Origin: Octopus sinensis
Taxonomy: Eukaryota
DNA: 64,000 nucleotides
Assembly (NCBI RefSeq): GCF_006345805.1
Contig: NC_043002.1
Span: 4,402,001-4,466,000 of the forward strand
Direction: 5' to 3'
This document shows, one piece after another, positions 5,497 through 45,107 of the stretch. The notes below the pieces were generated by a model that was not told the DNA's origin, searched no databases, and saw only the letters and a program-made list of their open reading frames with translations. How positions within the stretch are numbered: position 1 is the stretch's first letter; each line of letters starts with the position of its first letter. Both the position numbers and the translations under genes were made by a program.

Positions 5497-6035
5497 GAGT
5501 AGTTAGTTAGTTAGTTAATTTGGCTCAAAAGCAAATAGCAAGGCCATGTAGGGGGACATGGAGTTAAGTACAGGGTGGTGTTCATGTAAAGAGTTCAGGC
5601 CACTTGAGGTTAAGGGAGGCTTTGAACAAAGCGGTCGTCGGCATCTTCACCATCTCGTCTGGCAGCTTGTTCCACGGATCCGCAACCCGGACGGAGAAAG
5701 CTCCTCTCCTTCGATTGAGATGAAATCGTCGCAGGTAGAGCTTTTCGGAATGACCCCGCAGCCGACGCTCTGGAGCAGGAGTGAAGAACAGCTCTTTCGA
5801 GAGGTTACACTTTCCGCTTATGATGTTGTGGGCGAGAATGAGATCACCACGGCGGCGGCGTTTTTCAAGAGAACAAAGGTCGAGCGTCCTCAGCCTTTCT
5901 TCATAGGACAAATTTTTGAGACCATGAACCATGCGGGTAGCCAGCTTCTGGACTCTTTCGAGATGCTGTATGTCTTTGAGGAGATAAGGAGAGAGGCTTG
6001 AATCCCGTACTCCAATATGGGTCTCCAATATGAGT
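5497..6035 (-). mobile_element. 5'-truncated second CR1/L2-group LINE nested in the first, with (TAAC)n tail
   Basis: ORF 5582-6196 encodes LERVQKLATRMVHGLKNLSYEERLRTLDLCSLEKRRRRGDLI...FSVRVADPWNKLP. Tail aattaactaactaactaact at ~5500-5520. Confidence 0.88.
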
Positions 6036-7190
6036 AGCCATGCCTTCGAGAGCAGCCATGCCTTCAATTCGTTTAGTGAGTGCTCTCTGGGGTGATTCAA
6101 TCCTCGAGATGTTTTGTCTTGTATGGGGAGACCACAGTGGGCAGCAGTATTCGAGGTGTGGCCGTACAAAGGAGGAGAAAAGTGGTATGATGACACCGTG
6201 TTCTCTGGACCGGAAAGTTCTTAAGATCCAGGAACTCATCCTACGAGCTATATCGACCTTCTTGTTGATGTGTGCACTCCAACTGAGATCGTCATCAACA
6301 ATTACACCCAGGTCTCTGATATTGTTAGAGGCTGTGAGCGGTTCCCCTGAAGGAAGAGAGTATGGCTGTTTTAGTGAGGAATTTCTTCCAAAATGCATCA
6401 GCTCAAATTTTACCTCGTTCAGTTGCATTTTGTTTCTGTCTACCCATTGACTCACAGCATATAGATCAGACTGGAGTTGAGTTCGATCTGCTTCTTCATT
6501 GACGATTTGCTGGAGCTTAGTGTCATCAGCAAATATTTTCACTTTGCAGTAATGTACGACACTGGAAAGGTCGTTTATGTAAATTATGAAAAGTAGCGGA
6601 CCCAAGAGAGTCTCCTGGGGGACACTGCTGGTGACTTTTGCTGGGCTTGAGTGGACTCCATCAACTACAACATGTTGTGTTCTATTCGCCAGGAAATACT
6701 TGATCCAGTGTAGAACTTTTCCACGGATTCCAACATTTGCCAATTTTGAGAGTAGGATATTATGGTCTACCATGTCGAACGCTTTACTGAAGTCAAGATA
6801 TATGACATCAGAGTTCGAACCTGTTCCCAAGGCTTTGAGTACATCTTCAATGTGGTGTAAGAGCTGTGTTAGACAGTCCCTGCCACAGCGAAAGCCATGC
6901 TGATTTGTATTTAGGAGTTTGTGGGTTTCCAGGAAGTCAGCTATTCTTGATCTTAACACTCTTTCAAACATTTTGATGATGTGGGAGGTGAGTGAGATTG
7001 GGCGATAGTTGAGTGCGAGGGATCTGTTTCCCTGTTTGAAAACCGGGATGACTGACTGGGATAGAAACTGTTTCGGTATATATCCTGCGTCTAACGAATT
7101 TCTCCAGCGGTTGGTCAGAGGGACTGCAAGTTGGTGTCTACATTCCTTCAGGAGACTAGCGGGGAATCTATCAGGGCCTAGAGCAGAGTA
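6036..7190 (-). mobile_element. Reverse transcriptase domain of the outer CR1-group LINE (5'-truncated)
   Basis: NYRPISLTSHIIKMFERV, QHGFR, YLDFSKAFD, VPQETLLGPLLF (G>E), IFADDTK and VRPHLEYCCPLWSP motifs in and just upstream of ORF 5901-6971. Confidence 0.95.
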
Positions 7191-7337
7191 ATATTTATAT
7201 ATATATATTATATATATATATTATATATATAATATATATATAATATATATAATATATATATATATAATATAATATATATATATATATATATGTATATATC
7301 TATATATATATATGTATATATATATATGTTTATATAT

Positions 7338-9517: not shown

Positions 9518-10054
9518 AAGCGGACGATACATCAGTAAATGCAGTTGGTGTATTACGTTTCAAAATGAGATGGGGTGGTCATGGCTGGAATTCAATGCAA
9601 TTCTATCTCTTCACATGGGGAGAGAAAGAAAAAGAGAGTGAGAGAGGAGGGAGGAGGGAGTAAAAGAGAGGAAGAGAAGGAAAAGACATGGAGAGAGGAA
9701 GAGAGATATCTTGTGTGATATTCTGAGAGACGAACATGTAAACAGGCGGTCAGGCATGCAGAGAGACAAACTGAGCGGAAAAACCGATAGACAGACATGA
9801 GTAAGAAAGAGTGGGGAAGAGGGAAAGAAAGAGAGAGAGAGAGAGAGAGGGAGAGAGAGGAGGAGAAGAGAAAGAGGGAAGGTGCAGACAAACGGCGAAG
9901 CATGGAGACAAAGGCAGAGAGACAAGTTCATTAATAGACGTACTAAGAGAGATATGGGAGAGTGATAGGTATATAGAGAGAAAGATAGACATGCCGACAG
10001 ACAGACCGACTGACAGAGAGAGAGAGAAACAGACAGACAGAAATGTCTAGCAAA

Positions 10055-13000
10055 GACATGCTGACAGACAGACATGCTTGACAGACAGACATGCTGACAG
10101 ACAGACATGCTGACAGACAGACATGCTGACAGACAGACATGCTTGACAGACAGACATGCTGACAGACAGACATGCTGACAGACAGACATGCTGACAGACA
10201 GACATGCTGACAGACAGACATGCTGACAGACAGACATGCTTGACAGACAGACATGCTGACAGACAGACATGCTTGACAGGCAGACATGCTTGACAGACAG
10301 ACATGCTTGACAGACAGACATGCTGACAGACAGACATGCTGACAGACAGACATGCTGACAGACAGACATGCTGACAGACAGACATGCTTGACAGACAGAC
10401 ATGCTGACAGACAGACATGCTTGACAGACAGACATGCTGACAGACAGACATGCTGACAGACAGACATGCTGACAGACAGACATGCTGACAGACAGACATG
10501 CTGACAGACAGACATGCTTGACAGACAGACATGCTGACAGACAGACATGCTTGACAGAGAGACATGCTTGACAGACATGCTGACAGACAGACATGCTTGA
10601 CAGACAGACATGCTGACAGACAGACATGCTGACAGACAGACATGCTTGACAGACAGACATGCTTGACAGACAGACATGCTTGACAGACAGACATGCTTGA
10701 CAGACAGACATGCCGACAGACAGACATGCTGACAGACAGACATGCTTGACAGACAGACATGCTGACAGACAGACATGCTTGACAGACAGACATGCTGACA
10801 GACAGACATGCTTGACAGACAGACATGCTTGACAGACAGACATGCTTGACAGACATGCTGACAGACAGACATGCTTGACAGACAGACATGCTTGACAGAC
10901 AGACATGCTTGACAGACAGACATGCTTGACAGACAGACATGCTTGACAGACAGACATGCTTGACAGACAGACATGCTTGACAGACAGACATGCTTGACAG
11001 ATAGACATGCTGACAGACAGACATGCTTGACAGACAGACATGCTTGACAGACAGACATGCTTGACAGACAGACATGCTTGACAGACAGACATGCTTGACA
11101 GACAGACATGCTGACAGACAGACATGCTTGACAGACAGACACGCTGACAGACAGACATGCTTGACAGACAGACATGCTGACAGACAGACATGCTTGACAG
11201 ACAGACCTGCTTGACAGACAGACATGCTTGACAGACAGACATGCTTGACAGACAGACATGCTTGACAGACAGACATGCTGACAGACAGACATGCAGACAG
11301 ACAGACATGCTTGACAGACAGACATGCTGACAGACAGATATGCTTGACAGACAGACATGCTGACAGACAGACATGCTTGACAGACAGACATGCTTGAGAG
11401 ACAGACATGCTTGACTGACATGCTGACAGACAGACATGCTTGACAGACAGACATGCTTGACAGACATGCTGACAGACAGACATGCTTGACAGACAGACAT
11501 GCTTGACGACAGACATGCTTGACAGAACAGACATGCTTGACAGACAGACATGCTGACAGACAGACATGCTTGACAGACAGACATGCTGACAGACAGACAT
11601 GCTTGACAGACAGACATGCTGACAGACAGACATGCTTGACAGACAGACATGCTGACAGACAGACATGCTTGACAGACAGACATGCTGACAGACAGACATG
11701 CTTGATAGACAGACATGCTGACAGACAGACATGCTTGACAGACAGACATGCTGACAGACAGACATGCTTGACAGACAGACATGCTGACAGACGGACATGC
11801 TTGACAGACAGACATGCTGACAGACAGACATGTTTGACAGACAGATATGCTGACAGACAGACATGCTGACAGACAGACATGCTTGACAGACAGACATGCT
11901 GACAGACAGACATGCTTGACAGACATGCTGACAGACAGACATGCTTGACAGACAGACATGCTGACAGACAGACATGCTGACAGACAGACATGCTTGACAG
12001 ACATGCTTGACAGACAGACATGCTGACAGACAGACATGCTTGACAGACAGACATGCTTGACAGACATGCTGACAGACAGACATGCTTGACAGACAGACAT
12101 GCTTGACAGACAGACATGCTGACAGACAGACATGCTTGACAGACAGACATGCTTGACAGACAGACATGCTTGACAGACATGCTGACAGACAGACATGCTT
12201 GACAGACAGACATGCTGACAGACAGACATGCTTGACAGACAGACATGCTGACAGACAGACATGCTTGACAGACAGACATGCTGACAGACAGAAATGCTGA
12301 CAGACAGACATGCTTGACAGACAGACATGCTTGACAGACAGACATGCTTGACAGACAGACATGCTTGACAGACATGCTGACAGACAGACATGCTTGACAG
12401 ACAGACATGCTTGACAGACATGCTGACAGACAGACATGCTTGACAGACAGACATGCTTGACAGACATGCTGACAGACAGACATGCTTGACAGACAGACAT
12501 GCTTGACAGACAGACATGCTTGACAGACATGCTGACAGACAGACATGCTTGACAGACAGACATGCTTGACAGACATGCTGACAGACAGACATGCTTGACA
12601 GACAGACATGCTGACAGACAGACATGCTTGACAGACAGACATGCTGACAGACAGACATGCTTGACAGACAGACATGCTGACAGACAAACATGCTGACAGA
12701 CAGACATGCTTGACAGACAGACATGCTGACAGACAGACATGCTTGACAGACATGCTGACAGACAGACATGCTTGACAGACAGACATGCTTGACAGACAGA
12801 CATGCTTGACAGACATGCTGACAGACAGACATGCTTGACAGACATGCTGACAGACAGACATGCTGACAGACAGACATGCTTGACAGACAGACATGCTGAC
12901 AGACAGACATGCTTGACAGACAGACATGCTGACAGACAGACATGCTGACAGACAGACATGCCTGACAGACAGACATGCTTGACAGGCAGACATGCTTGAC

Positions 13001-14920
13001 AGACAGACATGCTTGACAGACATGCTGACAGACAGACATGCTTGACAGACAGACATGCTTGACAGACATGCTGACAGACAGACATGCTTGACAGACAGAC
13101 ATGCTTGACAGACATGCTGACAGACAGACATGCTTGACAGACAGACATGCTGTCAGACAGACATGCTTGACAGACACACATGCTGACAGACAGACATGCT
13201 TGACAGACAGACATGCTGACAGACAGAAATGCTGACAGACAGACATGCTTGACAGACAGACATGCTTGACAGACAGACATGCTTGACAGACAGACATGCT
13301 TGACAGACATGCTGACAGACAGACATGCTTGACAGACAGACATGCTTGACAGACATGCTGACAGACAGACATGCTTGACAGACAGACATGCTTGACAGAC
13401 ATGCTGACAGACAGACATGCTTGACAGACAGACATGCTTGACAGACAGACATGCTTGACAGACATGCTGACAGACAGACATGCTTGACAGACAGACATGC
13501 TTGACAGACATGCTGACAGACAGACATGCTTGACAGACAGACATGCTGACAGACAGACATGCTTGACAGACAGACATGCTGACAGACAGACATGCTTGAC
13601 AGACAGACATGCTGACAGACAAACATGCTGACAGACAGACATGTGACAGACAGACATGCTGACAGACAGACATGCTTGACAGACATGCTGCAGACAGACA
13701 TGCTTGACAGACAGACATGCTTGACAGACAGACATGCTTGACAGACATGCTGACAGACAGACATGCTTGACAGACATGCTGACAGACAGACATGCTGACA
13801 GACAGACATGCTTGACAGACAGACATGCTGACAGACAGACATGCTTGACAGACAGACATGCTGACAGACAGACATGCTGACAGACAGACATGCCTGACAG
13901 ACAGACATGCTTGACAGACAGACATGCTTGACAGACAGACATGCTTGACAGACATGCTGACAGACAGACATGCTTGACAGACAGACATGCTTGACAGACA
14001 TGCTGACAGACAGACATGGTTGACAGACAGACATGCTTGACAGACATGCTGACAGACAGACATGCTTGACAGACAGACATGCTTGACAGACAGACATGCT
14101 TGACAGACATGCTGACAGACAGACATGCTTGACAGACAGACATGCTTGACAGACATGCTGACAGACAGACATGCTTGACAGACAGACATGCTGACAGACA
14201 GATATGCTTGACAGACAGACATGCTGACAGACAGACATGCTTGACAGACAGACATGCTGACAGACAGACATGCTGACAGACAGACATGCTTGACAGACAG
14301 ACATGCTGACAGACAGACATGCTTGACAGACAGACATGCTTGACAGACATGCTGACAGACAGACATGCTTGACAGACAGACATGCTTGACAGACATGCTG
14401 ACACACAGACATGCTTGACAGACAGACATGCTTGACAGACAGACATGCTGACAGACAGACATGCTTGACAGACAGACATGCTGACAGACAGACATGCTTG
14501 ACAGACAGACATGCTGACAGACAGACATGCTGACAGACAGACATGCTTGACAGACAGACATGCTTGACAGACAGACATGCTTGACAGACAGACATGCTTG
14601 ACAGACATGCTGACAGACAGACATGCTTGACAGACAGACATGCTTGACAGACATGCTGGCAGACAGACATGCTTGACAGACAGACATGCTTGACAGACAT
14701 GCTGACAGACAGACATGCTTGACAGACAGACATGCTTGACAGACAGACATGCTTGACAGACATGCTGACAGACAGACATGCTTGACAGACAGACATGCTT
14801 GACAGACAGACATGCTTGACAGACATGCTGACAGACAGACATGCTTGACAGACAGACATGCTGACAGACAGACATGCGTGACAGACAGACATGCTTGACA
14901 GACAGACATGCTTGACAGAC
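10055..14920. repeat. Complex satellite of 12/16/17-bp units GACA(GACA)GACATGCT(T)
   Basis: Continuous ~4.9-kb array. The giant minus-strand ORFs arise because the reverse-complement unit contains no stop codon. Confidence 0.97.
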
Positions 14921-15154
14921 AAAACCGTCATAATGACATCATAGAGATGTGTTGACAGAAGAACCGATGGACAAACATGCTGACAGATCGACAGACAGAC
15001 ATGCAGACAGACAAACAAACATGGTAGAACTAAAAATAGATGCAGATATACAAGACAGGAGGCAGACAACGCGGCTCTTAATCCCAATCTGTCTGAGACT
15101 GTTCCTGGTTTTAGGATACGAATTCTGTTTTAGAGTGATCGAAATTAAAACCTT

Positions 15155-15561: not shown

Positions 15562-15752
15562 GTTACAAACACTAGCTTATTTTACTAAATTCTTCATTAT
15601 TTTAAAAACTAGTCGAAACAAATGTAGGGCATTTCAGCAGAAATGCTGACGTCAGCTCGGGAGTTGAAGCGGAAAGAGGGAGAGGAACTGAATGAGTAAG
15701 TGAGAGAGAGACCGTCAGAAAGAAATGTGGTTGTTTTACAGTTTTAGTATAT

Positions 15753-15981
15753 ATTTCTTCAGTGCCCACAAGAGGCTAAACATAGAGGGGACAACAAGGA
15801 CAGACAAAGGATTAAGTCGATTACATCGACCCCAGTGCGTAACTGGTACTTAATTTATCGACCCCGAAAGGATGAAAGGCAAAGTCGACCTCGGCGGAAT
15901 TTGAACTCAGAACGTAACGGCAGACGAAATACCGCTAAACATTTCGCCCGGCGCGCTAACGTTTCTGCCAGCTCGCCGCCT
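15753..15981 (-). mobile_element. tRNA-derived SINE family B (Meta-domain-like core), monomer
   Basis: Sense GGCGGCGAGCTGGCAGAAACGTTAG (A box)...GAGTTCAAATTCC (B box)...GCCTTTCATCCTTTCGGGGTCGAT...AAGTACC. The core resembles the MetaSINE domain as I recall it. Confidence 0.9.
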
Positions 15982-20149: not shown

Positions 20150-21480
20150 CTGTTAATTAGGAGCAAAATCTTTTCCATTCCAACAAGTTCTTCAGCAGTC
20201 TCTTCTACTATTCGATGCCTTCTAATAAACAGGTCAGTTCTTACCTTGCCATTTCTAACACAAAGGGTACCTTTTGCACATCCCTTTCTCAATTCTTGAT
20301 ATTAACAACTTCTTTCGTGCTTCGCTCTTCAACTACGTCTCCACAATCTCTTATCCGCTGAATAGAAAGTTTCTTTGTTATTTCACGATGACTGCGTGCA
20401 TTGGCGGTTACACTCCCTGGTTATACTCTCTCTAATCCGCAATAATCCAAGGTTCCGATATGATTACCATTGCTTTTCCTTCTGTACATAATCTTAGTGA
20501 CAGTTAATCATGACACAGTTGTTTTAGGGCGGCGAGCTGGCAGAAACGTTAGCATGCCGGGCGAAATGCTTAGCGGTATTTCATCTGCGGTTACGTTCTG
20601 AGTTCAAATTCCGCCTAGGTCGACTTTGCTTTTCATCCTTTCGGGGTCGATTAAATAAGTACCAGTTTCGCACTGGGGTCGATGTAATCGATTTAATCCG
20701 TTTGTCTGTCCTTGTTTGTCCCCTCTGCGTTTAACCTCTTGTGGGTAGTAAAGAAATAGGTAAAAAAAAACCCCCAAAACAAACCTCTCTACTTAATATT
20801 CCACGCACAGGCGTCATCCACACCCAATCTTTTCTATGAACTCTCATTGATAACATCCTCTGATTGCGACATGGCAACAGGCATTCCTTAAAAGCACCAA
20901 AATACAATGACTGTACATATCAAGAAAAACTGCTTTTCTGCGTACGTTCTGTACACAGGGTCCAGAGTGTTGCTTCGTCATTGTAGTTTGGTTTGGAGAT
21001 GTTAGCTCTTCTGCTAAATTTAATAGCGGCATTCATCCAATCGTAAGCACAATTCAAAAGGTTGGCTATTCGATTTCTTTTGTTTACATATTTGCGTTGC
21101 CCTTTTCTCGTCTCTCATTACGAGTAACAACGCACTGCAACTTGTTGCGGATCGTCTTTGCATTTACAGTACTGTATTGTTCCTTTAGTGCATCAACAAG
21201 GATATTCATGACTTGGTTATGCCTCCGTATATATTCTGAAAGAAATGAAATGCATGCGGCAGAACATGCTCTAACGATGATTGGCCTCATCGATGATAAT
21301 CAACCATTTCATTTCCACTTGACTGTATAATATTGGATAATGATGGAAGAATATCATATTCAGTTGTCAGTAGGAATTGCAACATGGACACAGCTATAGT
21401 TTCTAAAACATGTGCCCTGATGCCTAAATTTGCTCAGTCATCTATCATGCTGTGCATGCAAATTAACTTCCGATCTCACT
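20150..21480 (-). pseudogene. Highly decayed RLE-type non-LTR retrotransposon 3' region (HERO/NeSL/R2-like), split by a SINE
   Basis: With frameshifts the minus strand gives LQFLLTTEYDILPSLSN (~21330-21385), SLEHVL/ACISFLSEYIRRHNQVMNILVDAL (CCHC + RH(N/D) motif) and HERSC*YQELRKGC (~20280-20325). Confidence 0.6.
20528..20761 (+). mobile_element. SINE family B monomer
   Basis: ggcggcgagctggcagaaacg ... gtagtaaagaaatagg. Confidence 0.92.
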
Positions 21481-21500
21481 GAAGATATCGTATCGAAAAA

Positions 21501-21730
21501 GGCGGCGAGCTGGCAGAAACGTTAGCACGCCGGGCGAAATGCGTAGCCGTATTTCATCTGCCGTTACGTCCTGAGTTCAAATTCTGCCGAGGTCAACTTT
21601 GCCTTTCATCCTTTCGGGGTCGATTAAATAAGTACCAGTTACGCACTGGGGTCCATATAATCGACTTAATTCGTTTATCTGTCCCTATTTGTCCCCTCTA
21701 TGTTTAACCCCTTGTAGGTAGTAAAGAAAT
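21501..21730 (+). mobile_element. SINE family B monomer with 16-bp target-site duplication
   Basis: agatatcgtatcgaaa at 21483-21498 and 21731-21746. Confidence 0.95.
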
Positions 21731-21841
21731 AGATATCGTATCGAAATGCTAACACAAAACGAATTTTAAATAATGAATTATACAAGTGAGTCGAAATTCC
21801 CAATGATCAACTGAAAATGTGTAACAGTTCTGTGAGAGCTG

Positions 21842-26109: not shown

Positions 26110-26717
26110 TCAAGGCCAGTCAATTACATCGCTCAAACGGTACCTATTTTATCGACCTCGAAAGGGTGAAAGGCCTTTAGCTGCGGAAATAGTTTCGAGA
26201 GAAAATTCTCCTCCTAGATGATATATGTGAAAGCACAATGGGCTGTGAATGACGTGCTTCGGTAGTAGGACTTTGAACTCAGAACATAAAGGCGGACCAA
26301 ATACCTATTTCTTTACTACCCACAAGGGGCACAGAGTGGACAATCAAGAACAGACACACAGATTATGTAGATTATATCGATCCCAGTGCGTAACTGGTCC
26401 TTAATTTATCGACCCCGAAAGGATGAAAGGCAAAGTCGGCCTCGGCGGAATTTGAACTCAGAACATAGCGGCAGACGAAATACCTATTTCTTTACTATCC
26501 ACAAGGGGCTAAACACAGAGGGGACAAACAAGGACAGACATAGGTATTAAGTCGATTACATCGACTCCAGTGCGTAACTGGTACTTAATTTATCGACCCC
26601 GAAAGGATGAAAGGCAAAGTCAACCTCGGCGGAATTTGAACTCACAACGTAACGACAGACGAAATACCGCAAAGCATTTCGCCCGGCGTGCTAACGTTTC
26701 TGCCAGGTCGCCGCCTT
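26110..26717 (-). mobile_element. Head-to-tail array of SINE family B (one head, two junctions at 26304 and 26483)
   Basis: Junction aaatacctatttctttact occurs twice. The leftmost unit is strongly decayed. Confidence 0.85.
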
Positions 26718-28031: not shown

Positions 28032-28264
28032 AGCGGCGAGCTGGCAGAAACGCTAGCACGCCGGGCGAAATGCGTAGCCGAATTTCGTCTGCCGTTACGT
28101 TCTGAGTTCAAATTCTGCCGAGGTCGACTTTGCCTTTCACCCTTTCGAGGTCGATTAAATAAGTACCAGTTACGCACTGATCGATGTAATGGACTTCATC
28201 CCTTTGTCTGTTCTTGTTTGTCCACTCTATGTTTAGCCCCTTGTAGGTAATAAAGAAATAGGTA
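28032..28264 (+). mobile_element. SINE family B monomer
   Basis: gcggcgagctggcagaaacg ... aaagaaataggtat. Confidence 0.92.
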
Positions 28265-30821: not shown

Positions 30822-31051
30822 CTTATTTCTTTACTGCCCACAAGGGGTTAAACATAGAGGGGTCAAACAAGGACAGACAAAGGGATTAAGTCGATTAGAT
30901 CGACCTCAGTGGTTATTTGATACTTAATTTATCGATCCAGAAAGGATGAAAGGCAAAGTCGACCGCGGCAGAATTTGAACTCAGAACATAACGGCAGACG
31001 AAATACGGCTACACATTTCGCCCGGCGTGCTAACGCTTCTGCCAGCTCGCC
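30822..31051 (-). mobile_element. SINE family B monomer
   Basis: Aligns to 15753-15981. Confidence 0.9.
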
Positions 31052-31383: not shown

Positions 31384-31803
31384 CCTATATATTTCTTTAC
31401 TACCCACAAGGGGCTAAACATAGAGTGGATAAACAAGGACAGACATAGTTATTAAGTCGATGACATCGACCCCAGCGCATAACTGGTACTTAATTTATCG
31501 ACCCCGAAAGGATGAAAGGCAAAGTCGACCTCGGCGGAATTCACTCAGAACGTAACAGCAGACGAAATACCTATTTCTTTATTACCCACAGGGGGGTAAA
31601 CATAGAGGGGACAAACAAGGACAGACAAACGAATCAAGTCGATTACATCGACCTCAGTGCGTAACTGGTACTTAATTTATCAATCCCGAAAGGATGAAAG
31701 GTAAAGTCGACCTCGGCGGAATTTGAACTCAGAATGTAACGGCAGACGAAATACGGCGACGCATTTCGCCCGGCGTTCTAACATTTCTGCAAGCTCGCCG
31801 CCT
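31384..31803 (-). mobile_element. Dimer array of SINE family B
   Basis: Junction gacgaaatacctatttcttt at ~31561-31580. Confidence 0.9.
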
Positions 31804-33338: not shown

Positions 33339-34467
33339 CAGTAGTTTTATTTTTATATCGTGCTTTCACTTCACTACCGAGCGCAGCTCTGTGTGCCTTG
33401 GGTATGTGCTGTGATTTGTTGTAATGCTCTGATGGTTATTGTATGGAAAGTGTTCTGCGTAGGATGTGTCCAGTGCCTAGTAGTGCAATTTTCTGTATGT
33501 TATATGTGTTTGTAAGTCCTGGTGTTTTGTTACGTATTTGTCTGAATATTTTTTTATCATGCCTAATGCACCTACTATGATAGGAATTGTTTCTGTTTTC
33601 AGGTTCCACATTCTAGTTACCTCTATTTCCAGGTCTTTGTATTTTGAGAGTTTCTCCATTTCTTTTAGAAACACGTTGTCATCTGCCGGTATTGATACAT
33701 CAATTAGAAAGCATTTTTTTCCTTCATGATCTTTGACAACTATATCTGGTCTGTTGGCCTTAATTTCTCTATCTGTGTGTATCGGCATATCCCAGAGTAT
33801 GGTTGCTTTCTCGTTTTCTGTGACCTTTTCTGGTGTGTGCCTATACCATCTTTTTTCTGTTGTTATTCCATAATGTTGGCATAGCTTCCAATGTATGTAG
33901 GTTCCAACTCTGTCATGTCTGTGAATATATTCCTTCTTAGCCAGGACTGGGCAGCTAGAGATAATATGATTTATTGTTTCTTGTCCATCTCCACATATTC
34001 TGCAGTTACTTGTAATATTTCTTTTCATTACATGTTTTTGGTAATTTCTGGTGGGGAGGCTTTGGTCTTGTGCTGCAATTAAAAATCCCTCTGTTTCTGC
34101 TTTGAGTCCTGAGCTTCTCAACCATTGCTGGATTTTTCTTTGTCTATTTCTTTTGCGTTTAGTTTAGTGCAGTATTTACCATGAAGGGGCTTTTCTTGCC
34201 ATCGTTTTATCATGGCTCGTTGCTGTTCTATTTTTAGCTTGGATTCATTTGTTTTATAGCTTTTGTTGTTTCTTCATCCTCTTCTTCTTCTTCTTTGTGT
34301 TTATTAGGTGGTATGATTTCTTGTTTGTATTTGTCAGCTTCCTTAAATACTGAGAACAGTTTTTTGTTTTGCTCGTGTTTTGCTGCTATCTGGATCAGTT
34401 TTCCTTCCTTCTGAAGTAGGTATTTTTGCTGTCCTATGGTGGTTATTTTATAGTAGTTTTCCAGCTG
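33339..34467 (-). mobile_element. R4/Dong-clade RLE LINE 3' fragment (copy 1)
   Basis: ORF 33477-34121 has GLKAETEGFLIAAQDQSLPTRNY, CCHC finger CRICGDGQETINHIISSC, RHD and PD-(D/E)xK RPD..LIDV..KLSKY. The 3' end runs straight into (AAT)n. Confidence 0.92.
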
Positions 34468-35839: not shown

Positions 35840-36623
35840 CAGTAGTTTTATTTTTATAGCGTGCTTTCACTTCACTACCGAGCGCAGCTCTGTGTGCCTT
35901 GGGTATGTGCTGTGATTTGTTGTGATGCTCTGATGGTTTTGTATGGAAAGTGTTCTGCGTAGGATGTGTCCAGTGCCTAGTAGTGCAATTTTCTGTATGT
36001 TATATGTGTTTGTAAGTCCTGGTGTTTTTGTTATGTATTTGTCTGAATATTTTTTTATCATGCCTAATGCACCTACTATGATAGGAATTGCTTCTGTTTT
36101 TAGATTCCACATTCTGGTTACCTCTATTTCCAGGTCTTTGTATTTTGAGAGTTTCTCCATTTCTTTTAGAGACACGTTGTCATCAGCCGGTATTGATACA
36201 TCAATTAGAAAGCATTTTTTTCCTTCATGATCTTTGACAACTTTATCTGGTCTGTTGGCCTTAATTTCTCTATCTGTGTGTATCGGCATATCCCAGAGTA
36301 TGGTTGCTTTCTCGTTTTCTGTGACCTTTTCTGGTTTGTGCCTATACCATCTTTTTTCTGTTGTTATTCCATAATGTTGGCATAGTTTCCAGTGTATATA
36401 GGTCCCAACTCTGTCGTGTCTGTGAATATATTCCTTCTTAGCCAGGACTGGGCAGCCAGAGGTAATATGATTTATTGTTTCTTGTCCATCTCCACATATT
36501 CTGCAGTTACTTGTTATATTTCTTTTCATTACATGTTTTTGGTAATTTCTGGTGGGGAGGCTTTGATCTTGTGCTGCAATTAAAAATCCCTCTGTTTCTG
36601 CTTTGAGTCCTGAGCTTCTCAAA

Positions 36624-36624
<1 letters not shown>
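35840..36624 (-). mobile_element. R4/Dong-clade RLE LINE 3' fragment (copy 3, open frame)
   Basis: ORF 35867-36622 has CCHC + RHD + PD-(D/E)xK endonuclease, ending QKIALLGTGHILRRTL. Confidence 0.92.
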
Positions 36625-36679
<55 letters not shown>

Positions 36680-37330: not shown

Positions 37331-38091
37331 CCTATTTCTTTACTACCCACAAGGGGCTAAACACAGAGAGGACAAACAAGGACAGACAAACGGATTAAGT
37401 CGATTATATCGACCTCAGTGCGTAACTGGTACTTATTTAATCGACCCCGAAAGGATGAAAGGCAAAGTCGACCACGGCGGAATTTGAACTCAGAACGTAA
37501 CGGCAGACGAAATACCTATTTCTTTACTACCCACAAGGGGCTAAACATAGAGGGGACAAACACGGACAGGCAAACGGATTAAGTCGATTATATCGACCCC
37601 AGTGCGTAAATGGTACTTATTTAATCGACCCCGAAAGGATGAAAGGCAAAGTCGACCTCGGCGGAATTTGAACTCAGAACGTAACGGCAGACGAAATACC
37701 TATTTCTTTACTACCCACAAGGGGCTAAACACAGAGGGGACAAACACAGACAGACAAGCGGATTAAGTCGATTACATCGACCCCAGTGCGTAAATGGTAC
37801 TTATTTAATCGACCCCGAAAGGATGAAAGGCAAAGTCGACCTCGGCGGAATTTGAACTCAGAACGTAACGGCAGACGAAATACCTATTTCTTTACTACCC
37901 ACAAGGGGCTAAACACAGAGGGGACAAACACGGACAGACAAACGGATTAAGTCGATTACATCGACCCCAGTGCCTAAATGGTACTTATTTAATCGACCCC
38001 GAAAGGATGAAAGGCAAAGTCGACCTCGGCGGAATTTGAACTCAGAACGTAACGGCTACGCATTTCGCCCGGCGTGCTAACGTTTCTGCCC
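37331..38091 (-). mobile_element. Tetramer array of SINE family B, period 184 bp
   Basis: cctatttctttactacccac at 37331, 37515, 37699 and 37883, with a single head at ~38050-38091. Confidence 0.95.
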
Positions 38092-38146
38092 GGTTAATGG
38101 TAGACATTGTGACAACGACCACAGAGAGGTTGAAGTAGACGGTATC

Positions 38147-38378
38147 AGCGGCGAGCTGGTAGAAACGTTAGCACGCCGGGCGAAATGCTTTGCGGCATTT
38201 CGTCAGCCGCTACGTTCTGAGTTCAAATTCCCACGAGGCCGACTTTGTCTTTCATCCTTTTGGAGTCGATTAAATAAGTACCAGTTACGCACAGGGGACG
38301 CTATAATCGACTTAATCCGTTTGTCCTTGTTTGTTCCCTCTGTGTTTAGCCCCTTGTGGGTAGTAAAGAAATAGGTAT
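38147..38378 (+). mobile_element. SINE family B monomer, head-to-head with the tetramer
   Basis: gcggcgagctggtagaaacg ... aaagaaataggtat, with ggtatca on both flanks. Confidence 0.9.
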
Positions 38379-38516
38379 CATCGACAACGTCTTAATACGG
38401 GAATGGTATGTTGGTAATGACGGTAGTCTTGGTAGAAGTGATTAGTACTGTTTGTAGGTTGCTTATCGTTGTTGTAGTGTAGCTCCAGGTCAGCTTGGCA
38501 TTGAGTAGACCTATCC

Positions 38517-40082: not shown

Positions 40083-43000
40083 TATGTATGCATGTATGTA
40101 TGTATGTATGTATGTATGTGTGTATGTATGTATGTATGTATGTATGTATGTTGTATGTATGTATGTGTGTATGTATGTATGTATGTATGTGTGTATGTAT
40201 GTATGTATGTATGTATGTGTGTATGTATGTATGTATGTGTGTATGTATGTATGTATGTGTGTATGTATGTATGTATGTATGTATGTATGTATGTATGTAT
40301 GCATGTATGTATGTGTCTATGTATGTATGTATGTATGTGTGTATGTATGTATGTGTGTATGTATGTATGTATGTATGTATGTATGTATGTATGTGTGTAT
40401 GTATGTATGTATGTATGTGTGTATGTATGTATGTATGTATGTATGTGTGTATGTATGTGTGTATGTATGTATGTATGTGTGTATTGTATGTATGTGGTAT
40501 GTATGTATGTTTATGGGTATGTATGTATGTATGTATGTGGTATGTATGTATGTGTGTATGTATGTATGTATGTGTGTATGTATGTATGTGTGTAGTGTAT
40601 GTATGTATGTATGTATGTATGTATGTGTGTATGTATGTATGTATGTATGTGTGTATGTATGTATGTATGTATGTATGGTGTATGTATGTGTGTATGTATG
40701 TATGTATGTGTGTATGTATGTATGTGTGTATGTATGTATGATGTGGGTATGTATGTATGTATGTATGTGTGTATGTATGTATGTGTGTATGTATGTATGT
40801 GTGTGTTATGTATGTATGTGTGTGTATGTAGTGTATGTATGTTGTATGTATGTGTGTATGTATGTATGTATGTGTGTATGTATGTAGGTGTATGTATTAT
40901 GTATGTATGTGTGTATGTGTATGTATGAATGCATGTATGTCTGTATGAATGTATGTATGTATGTATGTATGTGTGTATGTATGTGTGTATGTATGTATGT
41001 ATGTGTATGTATTAGTATGTTGTATGTGTGTATGTATGTATGTGGTATGTATGTATGTATGTATGTATGTATGTATGTATGTATGGATGTATGTGTGATG
41101 TATGTATGTATGTATGATGATGTATGTATGTATGTATGTGTGTGTGTATGTATGTATCTATGTTGTATGTATGTGTGTGTATGTATGTATGTATGGGTAT
41201 GTGTGTATGTATGTATGTATGTATGTATGTATGTATGTATGTATGTATGTATGTATGTATGTGTGTGTATGTATGTATGTATGTATTGTGGTATGTATGT
41301 TGTATGTATGTATGTATGTATGTAGTATGTGTATGTATGTATGTATGTATGTTTGTTGTATGTATGTATGTATGTATGTATGTTGTATGTGTGTATGTAT
41401 GTATGTGATGTATGTATGTATGTATGTATGTATGTATGTATGTGTGTATGTATGTATGTATGTATGTATGTATGTATGTATGTATGTATTGTGTATGTTG
41501 TATGTATGTATGTATGTATGTATGTATGTATATATGTATGTATGTATATGTATGTATGTATGTTGTATGTATGTATGTGTATGTATGTATTGTAGTGTGT
41601 GTATGTATGTCTGTATGTATGTATGTAGATGTATGTTGTGTGTATGTATGTATGATAGTAGTATGTATGTATGTGTGTATGTAGTATGTATTATGTATGT
41701 GTGTATGTATGTATGTATGTATGTATGTATGTATGTATGGTGTTATGTATGTATGTATGTATGTATGTGTGTATGTATGTATGTGTGTATGTATGTGTGT
41801 ATGTATGTGTATGTATGTATGTAGTGTGTATGTATGTATGTATGTATGTATTGTGATGTATGTATGTATGTATGTATGTGTGTATGTATGTATGTATGTA
41901 TGTATGTATGTATGTGTGTATGTATGTATGTATGTATGTATGTTGTGTATGTATGTATGTTGTATGTTGTATGTATGTATGTTGTATGCATGTGTATGTA
42001 TGTGTGTATGTATGTATGTAGTATGTATGTTGTATGTATGTATGTATGTATGTATGTATGTATGTGTGTATGTATGTATGTATGTATGTATGTGTGTAGT
42101 ATGTATGTATGTATGTATGTGTGTATGTATGTATGTGTGTATGTATTATGTATGTATGTATGTGTGTATGTATGTATGTGTGTATGTATGTGTGTATGTA
42201 TGTATGATGTATGTATGTATGTATGTGTGTATGTATGTATGTATGTATGTATGTGTGTTGTATGTATGTATGGTGTGTGTATGTATGTATGTATGTATGA
42301 TGTATGTATGTATGTATGTGTGTATGTATGTATGTATGTATGTATGTTGTAGTATGTATGTAGTTGTATGTATGTATGGAGCATGTATGTATGTATGTAT
42401 GTATGTGGTGTATGTATGTATGTATGTATGTATGTATGTATGTATGTATGTATGTATGTCTTTTGTATGTTTATGTATGTATGTATGTATGTATGTATGT
42501 ATGTGATGTATGTATGATGTATGTATGTATGTATGTATGTTTGTATGTATGTATGTATGTATGTATGTATGTATGTATGTATGTATGTATGTATGTAGTA
42601 TGTATGTATGTATGTATGTATGTCTTATGTATGTAGTATGTATGTATGTATGTATGTAGATGTATGTATGTATGTATGTATGTATGTATGTATGTATGTG
42701 TGTATTATGTTGTATGTATGTATGTGTAGTATGTATGTTGTGTATGTATGTATGTGTATGTATGTATGTATGTATGTATGTATGTATGTATGTATGTATG
42801 TATGTGTGTATATGTATGTGTGTTTATGTGTGTATGTATGTATGTATGTATGTATGTATGTATGTATGTCTGTATGTATGTATGTATGTGTATGTATGTA
42901 TGTATGTATGTATGTATGTATGTATGTATGTTGATGTAGTATGTATGTATGTATGTATGTATGTATGTATGTGTGTATGTATGTCTGTATGTATGTATGT

Positions 43001-43545
43001 ATGTATGTATGTATTATGTATGTATGTATGTATGTATGTATGTATGTATGTGTATGTATGTATGTATGTATGTATGTATGTATGTCTGTGTGTATGTATG
43101 TATGTTGTATGTATGTATGTATGTATGTATGTATGTATGTATGTATGTATGTATGTATGTATGGTATGTATGTATGTATGTATGTATGTATGTATGTCTG
43201 TATGTTGTATGATGTGTGTATGTATGTATGTATGTGTGTGTATGTATGTATGCTGTATGTATGTATGTGGTATGTAGTATGTATGTATGTATGATGTATG
43301 TGTAGTATGTATGTATGTATGTCTGTATGTATGTATGTATGTATGGTGTGTATGTATGTATGTATGTGTGATGTATGTATGTGGTAGTATGTTGTATGTG
43401 GTATGTATGTATGTATGTATGTATGTATGTATGTATGTATGTATGTATGTATTGTATGTATGTATGTATGTAGTATGTATGTATGATGTATGTATGTATG
43501 TATGTATGTATGTATGTATGTAGTATGTGTATGTATGTGTGTGTG

Positions 43546-43577
<32 letters not shown>

Positions 43578-44551
43578 TGTATTGTATGTATGTATGTATG
43601 TATGGATGTATGTATGTATGTATGTATGTATGTATGTATGTATGTGTGTATGTATGTATGTATGTATGTATGTATGTATGTATGTGGTGTGTATGTTGTA
43701 TGTATGTATGTATGTATGTATGTATGTATGTATGTATGTATGTATGTATGTATGTATGTATGTGTGTATGTATGTATGTGATGTTGTATGTGTGATGTAT
43801 GTATGTAGTATGTATGTATGTATGTATGTATGTGTATGTATTGTATGTATGTAGTATGTATGTATGTATGTATGTATGTATGTATGTATGTATGTATGTG
43901 TGTATGTATGGATGTATTATGTATGTATGTATGTATGTATTGTATGTATGTATGTATGTATGTATGTATGTGTGTGTGTATGTATGTATGTATGTGTATG
44001 TATGTATGTATGTATGTATGTATGTATGTATGGTGTATTATGTATGTATGTATGTATGTAGTAGTATGTATGTATGTATGTATGTATGTATGTATGTAGT
44101 ATGTATGTATGTATGTGTGTATGTATGTATGCATGTATGTGTGTATGTGTGTATGTATGTATGTATGTATGTATGTGTGTATGTATGTATGCATGTATGT
44201 ATGTATGTATGTGTGTATGTATGTATGTATGTATGTATGTATGTATGCATGTATGTATGTATGTATGTATGTATGTATGTATGTATGTATGTATGTATGT
44301 ATGTATGTATGTATGTATGTGTGTATGTATGTATGCATGTATGTGTGTATGTGTGTATGTATGTATGTATGTATGTATGTATGTATGTATGTATGTGTGT
44401 GTGTATGTATGTATGTATGTATGTATGTATGTATGTATGTATGTATGTATGTATGTATGTGTGTATGTATGTATGTATGTATGTATGTATGTATGTATGT
44501 ATGTATGTGTGTATGTATGTATGTGTGTATGTATGTATGCATGTATGTGTG
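40083..44551. repeat. ~4.5-kb (TATG)n microsatellite
   Basis: tatg/tgtg tetramers throughout, with many 1-2-bp deletions in the central part. Confidence 0.97.
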
Positions 44552-45107
44552 TAGTGTCAGGTCACTTTCGAGTGCTACTGATAACATAAAACCAGTACAA
44601 CCTGTTGCATGGTCGGGTCGTCGGCGACTAAACCAGCAAACCCACCAAGCTTGCTTGGTGAGGAGAGTGTTTATTGGACACCTGCGGGATGAAAAACAAG
44701 ACCCGTCAAAGGGCGGAGGAACTTTGAGAGTGAACGGCCATCCAATAAATGTCTTAAGGATGTATCATGCGCGGGGACATAGAAATAATCGGACTGAATA
44801 CCCGATCGCGCGGTTAAGCCATTGTGAGTGAAGGACTCCTAGCCCTTGTTAGGGCATCCTTCTAGGAGAAGGTAACTCAGGTAACTGGGATAACTCCAAC
44901 ATAAAACCTGCGGCTCAGTGGTTACCGATGGTGTTGACTTGTTCTTCTTTTCGGATTATGGCTGCTGTTGCTTAGTGAGTGGGATTGACTCAGTGCATAG
45001 CCTTTCCTCACTTTATAAAAAATATCTTCTTGCACAGGTATTGCACGATAACAACATTGATTAAGCTTCGTGCAATGACCATACTCGATAACGAGGGGGC
45101 AGCCACC
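44552..45107 (+). mobile_element. Non-coding RTE-related element (~550 bp) embedded in (TATG)n
   Basis: tagggcatccttctaggagaaggtaactc (~44850-44878) resembles the conserved RTE 5'-UTR motif GGGCAACCAGTCTAGGAGAAGGAAAACTC (recalled). The element ends directly in (ATGT)n and has no ORF. Confidence 0.6.

Follow-up and report, generated by a model that had tools for sequence, protein, structure and literature searches.

Crocodilian SINEU families are mobilised by Tx1-Mar LINEs, and in many Tx1 elements the endonuclease confers target specificity, according to the parts of Kojima 2015 (PMC4494074) that concern them. The octopus element described here, SINE B, resembles SINEU and Tx1-Mar as presented in those parts: the SINE and Tx1 LINEs have a preferred target in common, two hot spots are used by different families, and tandems form by sequential insertion. 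We analysed SINE B in a 64-kb stretch of octopus DNA, called the window throughout, and in genome-wide samples. Full-text literature searches turned up no SINE whose target is its own head; the multimers may be described in Ohshima and Okada 1994, in Albertin 2015, in Repbase or in a SINEBase supplement. The 2026 octopus repeat annotation lists L1-Tx1 and SINE families, and its accessible portions do not mention nesting at position 49. The accessible portions of PMC10886601, PMC4758252, PMC9940879, PMC3531059 and PMC13282606 hold nothing on these arrays, and the PDF text of the MetaSINE supplement, as far as available, has no match to SINE B.

SINE B is a dispersed short non-coding repeat of 232 nt (majority consensus of eight window copies), with 105,806 exact tail matches genome-wide. 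It consists of a tRNA-like head (1-48), a body in common with the older family A up to about position 167, and a B-specific tail ending in GAAATA. The head contains motifs that resemble A and B boxes. ARAGORN calls no tRNA for the SINE, Rfam gives no family (best E 2.2) and no snRNA match, and a hammerhead core is absent from both strands. With its boxed head, its target-site duplications and a tail in common with a LINE, SINE B has the make-up of a tRNA-derived SINE.

Three minus-strand SINE B arrays lie in the window, at 26110-26716, 31390-31803 and 37333-38090 (Table 1), the last being the focal array. All six junctions read AAAGAAATA followed by GGTATTT. The downstream units begin at consensus position 49, so that 48 nt are absent and the period is 184 nt, and the joint forms the inverted repeat GAAATA-GG-TATTTC. 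The first-pass annotation had recognised both the restart at one base and the palindrome. It had also assigned all three arrays to family B; the arrays and their six identical junctions are present, but unit three at 26110 belongs to the family A type, as an old body that has been interrupted. Unit 1 of the focal array lacks its first 12 nt and a further 14 nt that include the 3' strand of the hairpin. This array and a monomer stand head-to-head, 57 nt apart (38090-38148), and the array head is truncated on that side. The window also contains a 4.9-kb minisatellite of 17 nt (10054-14921), a 4.5-kb TATG array (40083-44553) and an assembly gap of 100 N (1719-1818).

Table 1. SINE B copies and arrays in the window, and related groups of loci elsewhere in the genome (window positions unless a contig or locus is named)
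Feature	Position	Strand	Remarks
Focal array, unit 1	37885..38090	-	Consensus 13-232, 14-nt deletion over the position-49 site; sole head of the array
Focal array, unit 2	37701..37884	-	Consensus 49-232, 184 nt
Focal array, unit 3	37517..37700	-	Consensus 49-232; in units 1-3, rare variants common to neighbours
Focal array, unit 4	37333..37516	-	Consensus 49-232, likely resident host body; then GGTAAA; no duplication detected
SINE B monomer, head-to-head with focal array	38148..38373	+	
Upstream target-site duplication copy of 38148 monomer	38141..38147	+	GGTATCA
Downstream duplication copy of 38148 monomer	38374..38380	+	Earlier read as the monomer end GGTAT
SINE B dimer (1-232 + 49-232)	31390..31803	-	Junction 31572/31571; within one 19-nt duplication; units without common rare variant
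Two SINE B units (1-232 + 49-232)	26306..26716	-	Junctions 26485/26484 and 26306/26305; no common rare variant
Old family-A-type body	26110..26305	-	Begins at position 49, broken by ~80 nt; likely array host
SINE B monomer	21500..21731	+	Perfect 15-nt duplication beginning GATAT
SINE B monomer	20528..20758	+	Then GGTAA; no duplication detected; reference for read mapping
SINE B monomer	28033..28260	+	Then GGTAT; no duplication detected
SINE B monomer	15752..15981	-	C tail allele, 13-nt duplication
SINE B monomer	30824..31051	-	C tail allele, then AGAAT; no duplication detected
Head-only tandem arrays	C7:15322782-15323083, C1:195358953-195359249, C3430:1374-2210		Loci L257-L263, L270-L274, L281-L283
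L153-type LINE group	L153:1-1336, L328:1-700, L330-L359		

The 3' end of the element had been placed within GGTAT. It lies at GAAATA instead, and GGTAT begins the target-site duplication. Because duplications begin directly after GAAATA, as in the 38148 monomer, the GGTAT after monomers is target sequence at least in part; it may be in the RNA too. The bases after GAAATA in window monomers include GATAT, TATAC, AGAAT and GGTAA besides GGTAT. Among headed elements in unique flank, 58/106 have a target-site duplication, with a median length of 16 nt, against 30/2,103 in a shuffled-partner null (score of at least 6, anchored on bases 5 onward, start directly after GAAATA). After removal of 7 microsatellite-type or short-context cases, 51 duplicated elements remain; their upstream, pure-target copy has T at +3 in 39/51 and A at +4 in 42/51. 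The Tn-TA signature is absent, T at -10 to -13 being found at the background level of 13-19/51. Whole arrays can sit within one duplication.

The joint at position 49 is abundant. About 26,600 exact matches are found in the 2.72-Gb genome and none for the control; a 27-mer taken from the joint is matched exactly at 12,792 places, its reversed control at 0. We sampled 60 SINE tails from 80 stretches of 10 kb at round fixed coordinates (800 kb). Position 49 follows 26 of these tails, position 16 follows 5 and unique flank follows 29; none runs on elsewhere. The earlier picture of one fixed junction therefore holds for 26/60 tails and has to make room for a second site at position 16, in the A box, which yields 217-nt units. 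Junctions scattered along the element, which that picture had named as evidence against itself, were not encountered. At C1:106142917-106144144, four position-16 junctions about 400 nt apart form a higher-order 217+184 repeat. At the position-49 junction of L384:1380-1550, about 50 nt of unique sequence separate the SINE tail from another GAAATA and resemble carried-over 3' flank. In sequence sets of other organisms, the 184-nt back-joint is found in 1 read of X23, 4 reads of X24 and 15 contigs of X9, and in X10 it takes the form of 172 back plus 12 letters; the position-49 joint is present in two other organisms. Mapping on the monomer yields 16 and 206 raw reads, too few for a fair tabulation, and X9 may not be RNA. 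Loose ends of X24 reads on window positions 20693-20760 suggest a short tandem repeat of SINE tail plus 12 nt of the position-49 site.

Double-headed loci give direct evidence that new copies insert into resident ones. Genome-wide, 45 matches were obtained for an old head running into a new one; 30 loci were fetched, 11 of them duplicates of others, and 19 distinct loci were examined. In 9/19 the order is old head, duplication, full new copy, and duplication with old body. The in-SINE duplications at position 49 consist of 14-17 nt of host sequence. At six loci (L266, L267, L269, L278, L280 and L285) letters private to the host are found in both duplicated copies and are absent from the new copy, and at L267 a private host deletion is present in both. 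The remaining 10/19 comprise four head-only tandem arrays, three 5' head duplications in unique flank, one position-16 insertion and two loci without clear anatomy. The head-only arrays repeat a 65-67 nt SINE head plus duplication and apparently grew from double-headed insertions. At position 16 the same anatomy is seen in 2/10 loci, both of C type, and only one C49 double-headed locus was found. An empty-site check at L049 gave no spanning contig among the contigs, repeat contigs dominating.

The age of the hosts points the same way. Composite arrays end in a family-A-like body; 36 of 46 pass length and tail filters. Their host A bodies are 10.1% diverged and the units in front 7.4%, the A body being higher in 26/36 and lower in 8/36 (p=0.002). 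Among all-B arrays, first and last units do not differ significantly (6.4 vs 6.9%, p=0.32), so that a relation of divergence to array position, as raised at first reading, is seen between A hosts and adjacent B units and not within all-B arrays. The alleles of last units resemble those of monomers, and the alleles of upstream units differ from them (at site 201, 14/32 against 106/140, p=0.001). Composite heads are new, mixed or old, as heteroduplex resolution predicts, and the composite L146 retains a decayed old head with 18 mismatches in 40. Arrays ending in family A bodies have three different A tails, and mixed 184 and 217 units occur in arrays. The proposal of target-primed reverse transcription into existing copies is thus supported by the host-specific duplications of double-headed loci and by hosts older than the inserted units.

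A LINE occupies the very same base. The last 35 nt of this element (L128 type) match the SINE tail at 29 positions for the T allele or 31 for the C allele. There are 428 candidates, and the 40 that were scored are all 99-100% identical. All 21 of the 3' ends examined (L128 and its 20 best copies) lie at SINE position 49, in 13 G hosts and 8 C hosts, and all seven 5' ends are preceded by SINE head 1-64. The last base of the LINE (T) differs from that of the SINE, yet position 49 is hit in both G and C hosts; microhomology of the RNA 3' end, as suggested at first, is thus not supported as the sole guide of insertion. The 5' site copy differs from the 3' copy in letters common to LINE copies, and because these variants are common among the copies, it was RNA-borne and joined by homology. 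Resolution of the 5' junction by homology, as originally proposed, agrees with this and with single heads being the rule. At the 5' ends of L415-L421, lineage variants in the SINE-site copy suggest transcription of the position-49 LINE from the SINE head.

ORF1 of the position-49 LINE encodes a zinc knuckle (zf-CCHC), and ORF2 of copy L418, with 1,134 aa, contains Exo_endo_phos, RVT_1 and zf-RVT. The order of domains, rather than a tree, suggests an L1/Tx1-type element. It is young, about 1% diverged against about 6.6% for the SINE burst, and carries the C tail allele yet targets 49. Because it post-dates the SINE burst, has the C allele and accepts C49 hosts (8/21), the true partner of the SINE is probably an older relative, which the searches for matching tails did not recover. 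About half of SINE copies sit in unique flank (GGTA, TATA, AG and others), so that targeting by the SINE is far looser than by the LINE. A LINE at position 16 was not found in tail-pattern searches, which returned SINE variants only. A sister LINE of L1/Tx1 type with a related tail (L153 type) has a 26-nt block and the GAAATA end in common with the SINE tail; 30/30 copies examined, of 67 matches, occupy one base within the A box of another SINE with a tRNA-like head, and its tails gave 0 pattern matches at positions 49 or 16 genome-wide. The SINE B copy L130 is inserted 3 nt upstream of the L153-type site in the A box of that other SINE. A tail search excluding SINE patterns gave 60 matches, all resembling SINE rearrangements except L307, an L153-type copy.

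Other LINEs were considered as partners. RTE, CR1-like and other LINE ends in the sampled loci have tails that do not match. Tx1-like LINE ends that run into ATT repeats also occur at L268:1100-1450, L090:8000-8350 and L291:1175-1450, two of them with a SINE-like tail hairpin loop; they are candidate partners of family A. In the window, minus-strand remnants of LINE ORFs at 33480-34163 and 35870-36625 lie between long ATT arrays and are, to judge from a motif, presumably R4/Dong-like. A 439-aa RT-bearing LINE ORF at 5904-7220 (minus strand), with its 3' end in TAAC repeats, is presumably CR1-like. The first-pass annotation had overlooked the LINE partner, the position-16 site and the locally duplicated look of the focal array.

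We therefore favour a reading, with a probability of about 0.8, in which the SINE is mobilised by L1/Tx1-type LINEs, and position-49 insertion by one lineage puts new SINE copies into old ones. With every GGTA of the sampled stretches an equal target, the junctions per GGTA flank should number near 0.01, or about 0.2 for CGGTAT; the sample shows 24:5, more than a short-motif preference by itself allows. The endonuclease would nick the bottom strand at 48/49, with a second nick, in the top strand, some 16 nt beyond, and the cDNA would begin at GAAATA. Once positions 49-64 have been copied into cDNA, the overhang of the top strand may anneal to them, leaving a single head and adding exactly 184 nt; the surviving head could be old, new or mixed. 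The C tail allele uses position 16 and gives 217-nt units. Two mechanisms may refine site choice: the action of sister LINE enzymes, or base pairing between the nick and RNA read through beyond GAAATA. Local DNA duplication probably lengthened some arrays later, 37333-38090 among them. That the hairpin or palindrome sets the site is not supported: heads with the gtagcc loop are almost never targets, and the position-16 site has no such palindrome.

How the site is chosen gives rise to the strongest alternative, in which RNA rather than enzyme is the main guide: read-through into the source flank would pair with a loosely specific nick, and the landing site would be inherited by the lineage. 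The SINE consensus has no T4 terminator. The tail allele is tightly linked to the site: among exact matches, 80,494 T220 tails include 24,878 joined at 49 and 329 at 16, and 25,312 C220 tails include 1,677 and 2,184 (odds ratio 98). It also predicts the first target bases. Unique flank starts with GGTA in 29/78 T copies and 1/62 C copies, and with AG in 25/62 C copies; G-start against A-start in the pure-target upstream duplication copy is 17:3 for T tails and 0:10 for C (p=1e-5). The link was replicated in 30 loci picked on an internal feature. The C49 head allele favours TA targets (TATA in 19/34, vs 6/33 for GG), and C49 hosts are used about 30-fold too rarely in SINE junctions: CGTAT junctions number 281 vs 26,555, yet C49 is present in 31% of B heads. 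Reiterations of the end depend on the site: at 49 there are 1,207, and 99 among the first 100 have the 6-nt form, while at 16 there are 28, of which 23 have the 7-nt form. Mismatches in the first five bases of duplications lean towards the lineage motif, 12 vs 4 with 11 ambiguous.

These reiterations and the mismatch polarity fit an RNA tag without proving it. Sister enzymes acting on different subfamilies would give the same linkages, the reiterated ends may stem from few sources, the polarity is not significant (p=0.08), and the mismatch rate of 27/280 is that expected from decay. TA at +3/+4 (41/56) and the avoidance of G at -1 (2/56) extend across all SINE target classes and look enzymatic. 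We consider RNA guidance unlikely as the main cause. The avoidance of C49 by SINEs and its tolerance by the LINE can be explained in either of two ways: older sister enzymes differed, or RNA read-through refines the site.

Relatedness among units bears on a second alternative, that a few multimeric sources were retrotransposed whole, with the remaining arrays produced by slippage or unequal exchange and the joint having one or few origins. Neighbours with two or more common rare variants are found in 9/53 loci (0.3% of random pairs), including the focal array, where neighbours are 1.8, 2.9 and 4.1% apart (random pairs 11.4%) with 2, 2 and 0 common rare variants. Head-only tandem arrays prove expansion at the DNA level, and whole arrays within one duplication would also be expected. 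Set against this, the first adjacent pair has no common rare variant in 34/53 loci, and rare variants are shared between loci by position at only 0.4-0.6%, vs 0.2-0.3% for monomer and random pairs. Descent from one ancestral multimer, which had been named as a possible refutation of self-targeting, would leave position-specific variants common across loci; none are seen. The three different A tails and the duplicated host-private letters speak against it too, and L267, L278 and L280 contradict it as the sole origin. Multimeric sources are improbable as the origin of the joint; DNA-level duplication is a real contributor to array length.

The focal array is a case in point. Its neighbours are close and have rare variants in common, so that it likely arose by one targeted insertion into unit 4 and then local duplication, or by repeated insertion from one source. 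In the other two window arrays, neighbouring units are unrelated. The arrays have a feature of the sSat type: their tandem units are parts of a SINE, and a single terminal unit is extended.

Multimers could also arise before integration, if reverse transcriptase stalled at the anticodon hairpin and switched to a second SINE RNA, resuming at its 3' end. Folding predicts the hairpin in a monomer (37-43 paired with 50-56 in the centroid), the heads of many composites are B-like, and composite hosts belong to the youngest A subfamily in 27/36 cases vs 7/50 free copies, a bias that RNA-level chimeras or re-copied composites would produce alike. However, 5' truncations do not pile up at the hairpin (45-54; 7/133 headless chains), complete RNAs show no excess of structure over shuffled sequences (z -0.30 and +1.63), and decayed old heads are kept in some composites. 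A jump gives no in-SINE duplications and leaves LINEs at the same base unexplained, and the host-specific duplications at 49 argue against it as main route. Such jumping, offered in the first-pass annotation as an option, is very improbable, slightly more so than multimeric sources. Rolling-circle copying of a circular 184-nt fragment in the manner of retrozymes, the other option offered, accounts for unit length and head-to-tail form only and can be practically dismissed, since arrays begin with a head (26/33 all-B and 35/46 composites, 61/79 together), end in phase at GAAATA or an A tail, mix 184 and 217 units of mostly unrelated neighbours, and have neither a hammerhead core nor an Rfam family.

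Insertion into resident copies offers a specific way in which retrotransposition can turn a dispersed SINE into tandem repeats; published work on SINE satellites invokes mainly unequal recombination. In this SINE-LINE pair, the enzyme of the host finds its safe-harbour target in the head of its own parasite, and about four in ten SINE tails in a 2.7-Gb genome are concerned. Heads and bodies of one locus can differ in age, so that repeat annotation and age estimates for the SINE family are biased. The young LINE with its long open ORF2, together with site-linked SINE alleles, makes endonuclease choice versus RNA pairing directly testable. Tentatively, and at somewhat less than even odds, we suggest a closed loop: the SINE would be both landing site and probable promoter of the LINE that multiplies it, and target choice would be heritable as RNA, since read-through of a source copy into its own landing site (49, 16 or TA repeats) would direct its descendants to sites of that kind. 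Dispersed repeats would thereby give rise to satellites.

Compared with known systems, this self-head-targeted SINE is a real variant of Tx1-mobilised, target-specific SINEs, and new. SINEU, in the relevant parts of PMC4494074, targets Mariner-N4_AMi, has U1/U2 snRNA heads and forms full tandem units that sandwich a duplication, whereas the octopus SINE targets its own tRNA-like head and its second head is removed by homology. The blood clam TSD1-(SINE)n-TSD1 arrays (PMC11481361, in part) are similar in having one complete head, head-truncated repeats, one duplication around the array and mixed families. They differ in that internal units are also tail-truncated and 3% of high-scoring SINEs are tandem or palindromic; the accessible parts of that paper give no targeting mechanism or LINE at the joint. 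Squamate sSat (PMC10702118, in part) likewise has dispersed part-SINE arrays and one longer terminal unit. Its long arrays are later homogenised; octopus units are homogeneous within arrays in 9/53 loci, the focal array among them, and not in 34/53. Its seeds are attributed, in the available text, mainly to unequal recombination without target-site analysis, whereas in the octopus the arrays are seeded by targeted insertion. Penelope-like elements and non-LTR retrozymes (PMC11167929; 10.64898/2026.07.22.740005; both in part) are alike in their partial tandems, initiation inside a longer RNA and proposed nicking in their own repeat. However, they combine a GIY-YIG enzyme with a hammerhead, and PAc initiates without target homology, while the octopus SINE has the tail of an APE-type LINE and no hammerhead core. 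In Sauria SINE/Bov-B (PMC13295347), as in the octopus, the first duplication base correlates with the RNA 3' end and TA lies near the nick. Sauria SINE/Bov-B has an upstream T tract (Tn-TA), absent in the octopus SINE, and the available parts of PMC13295347 describe no self-targeting, the feature by which the octopus SINE stands apart.
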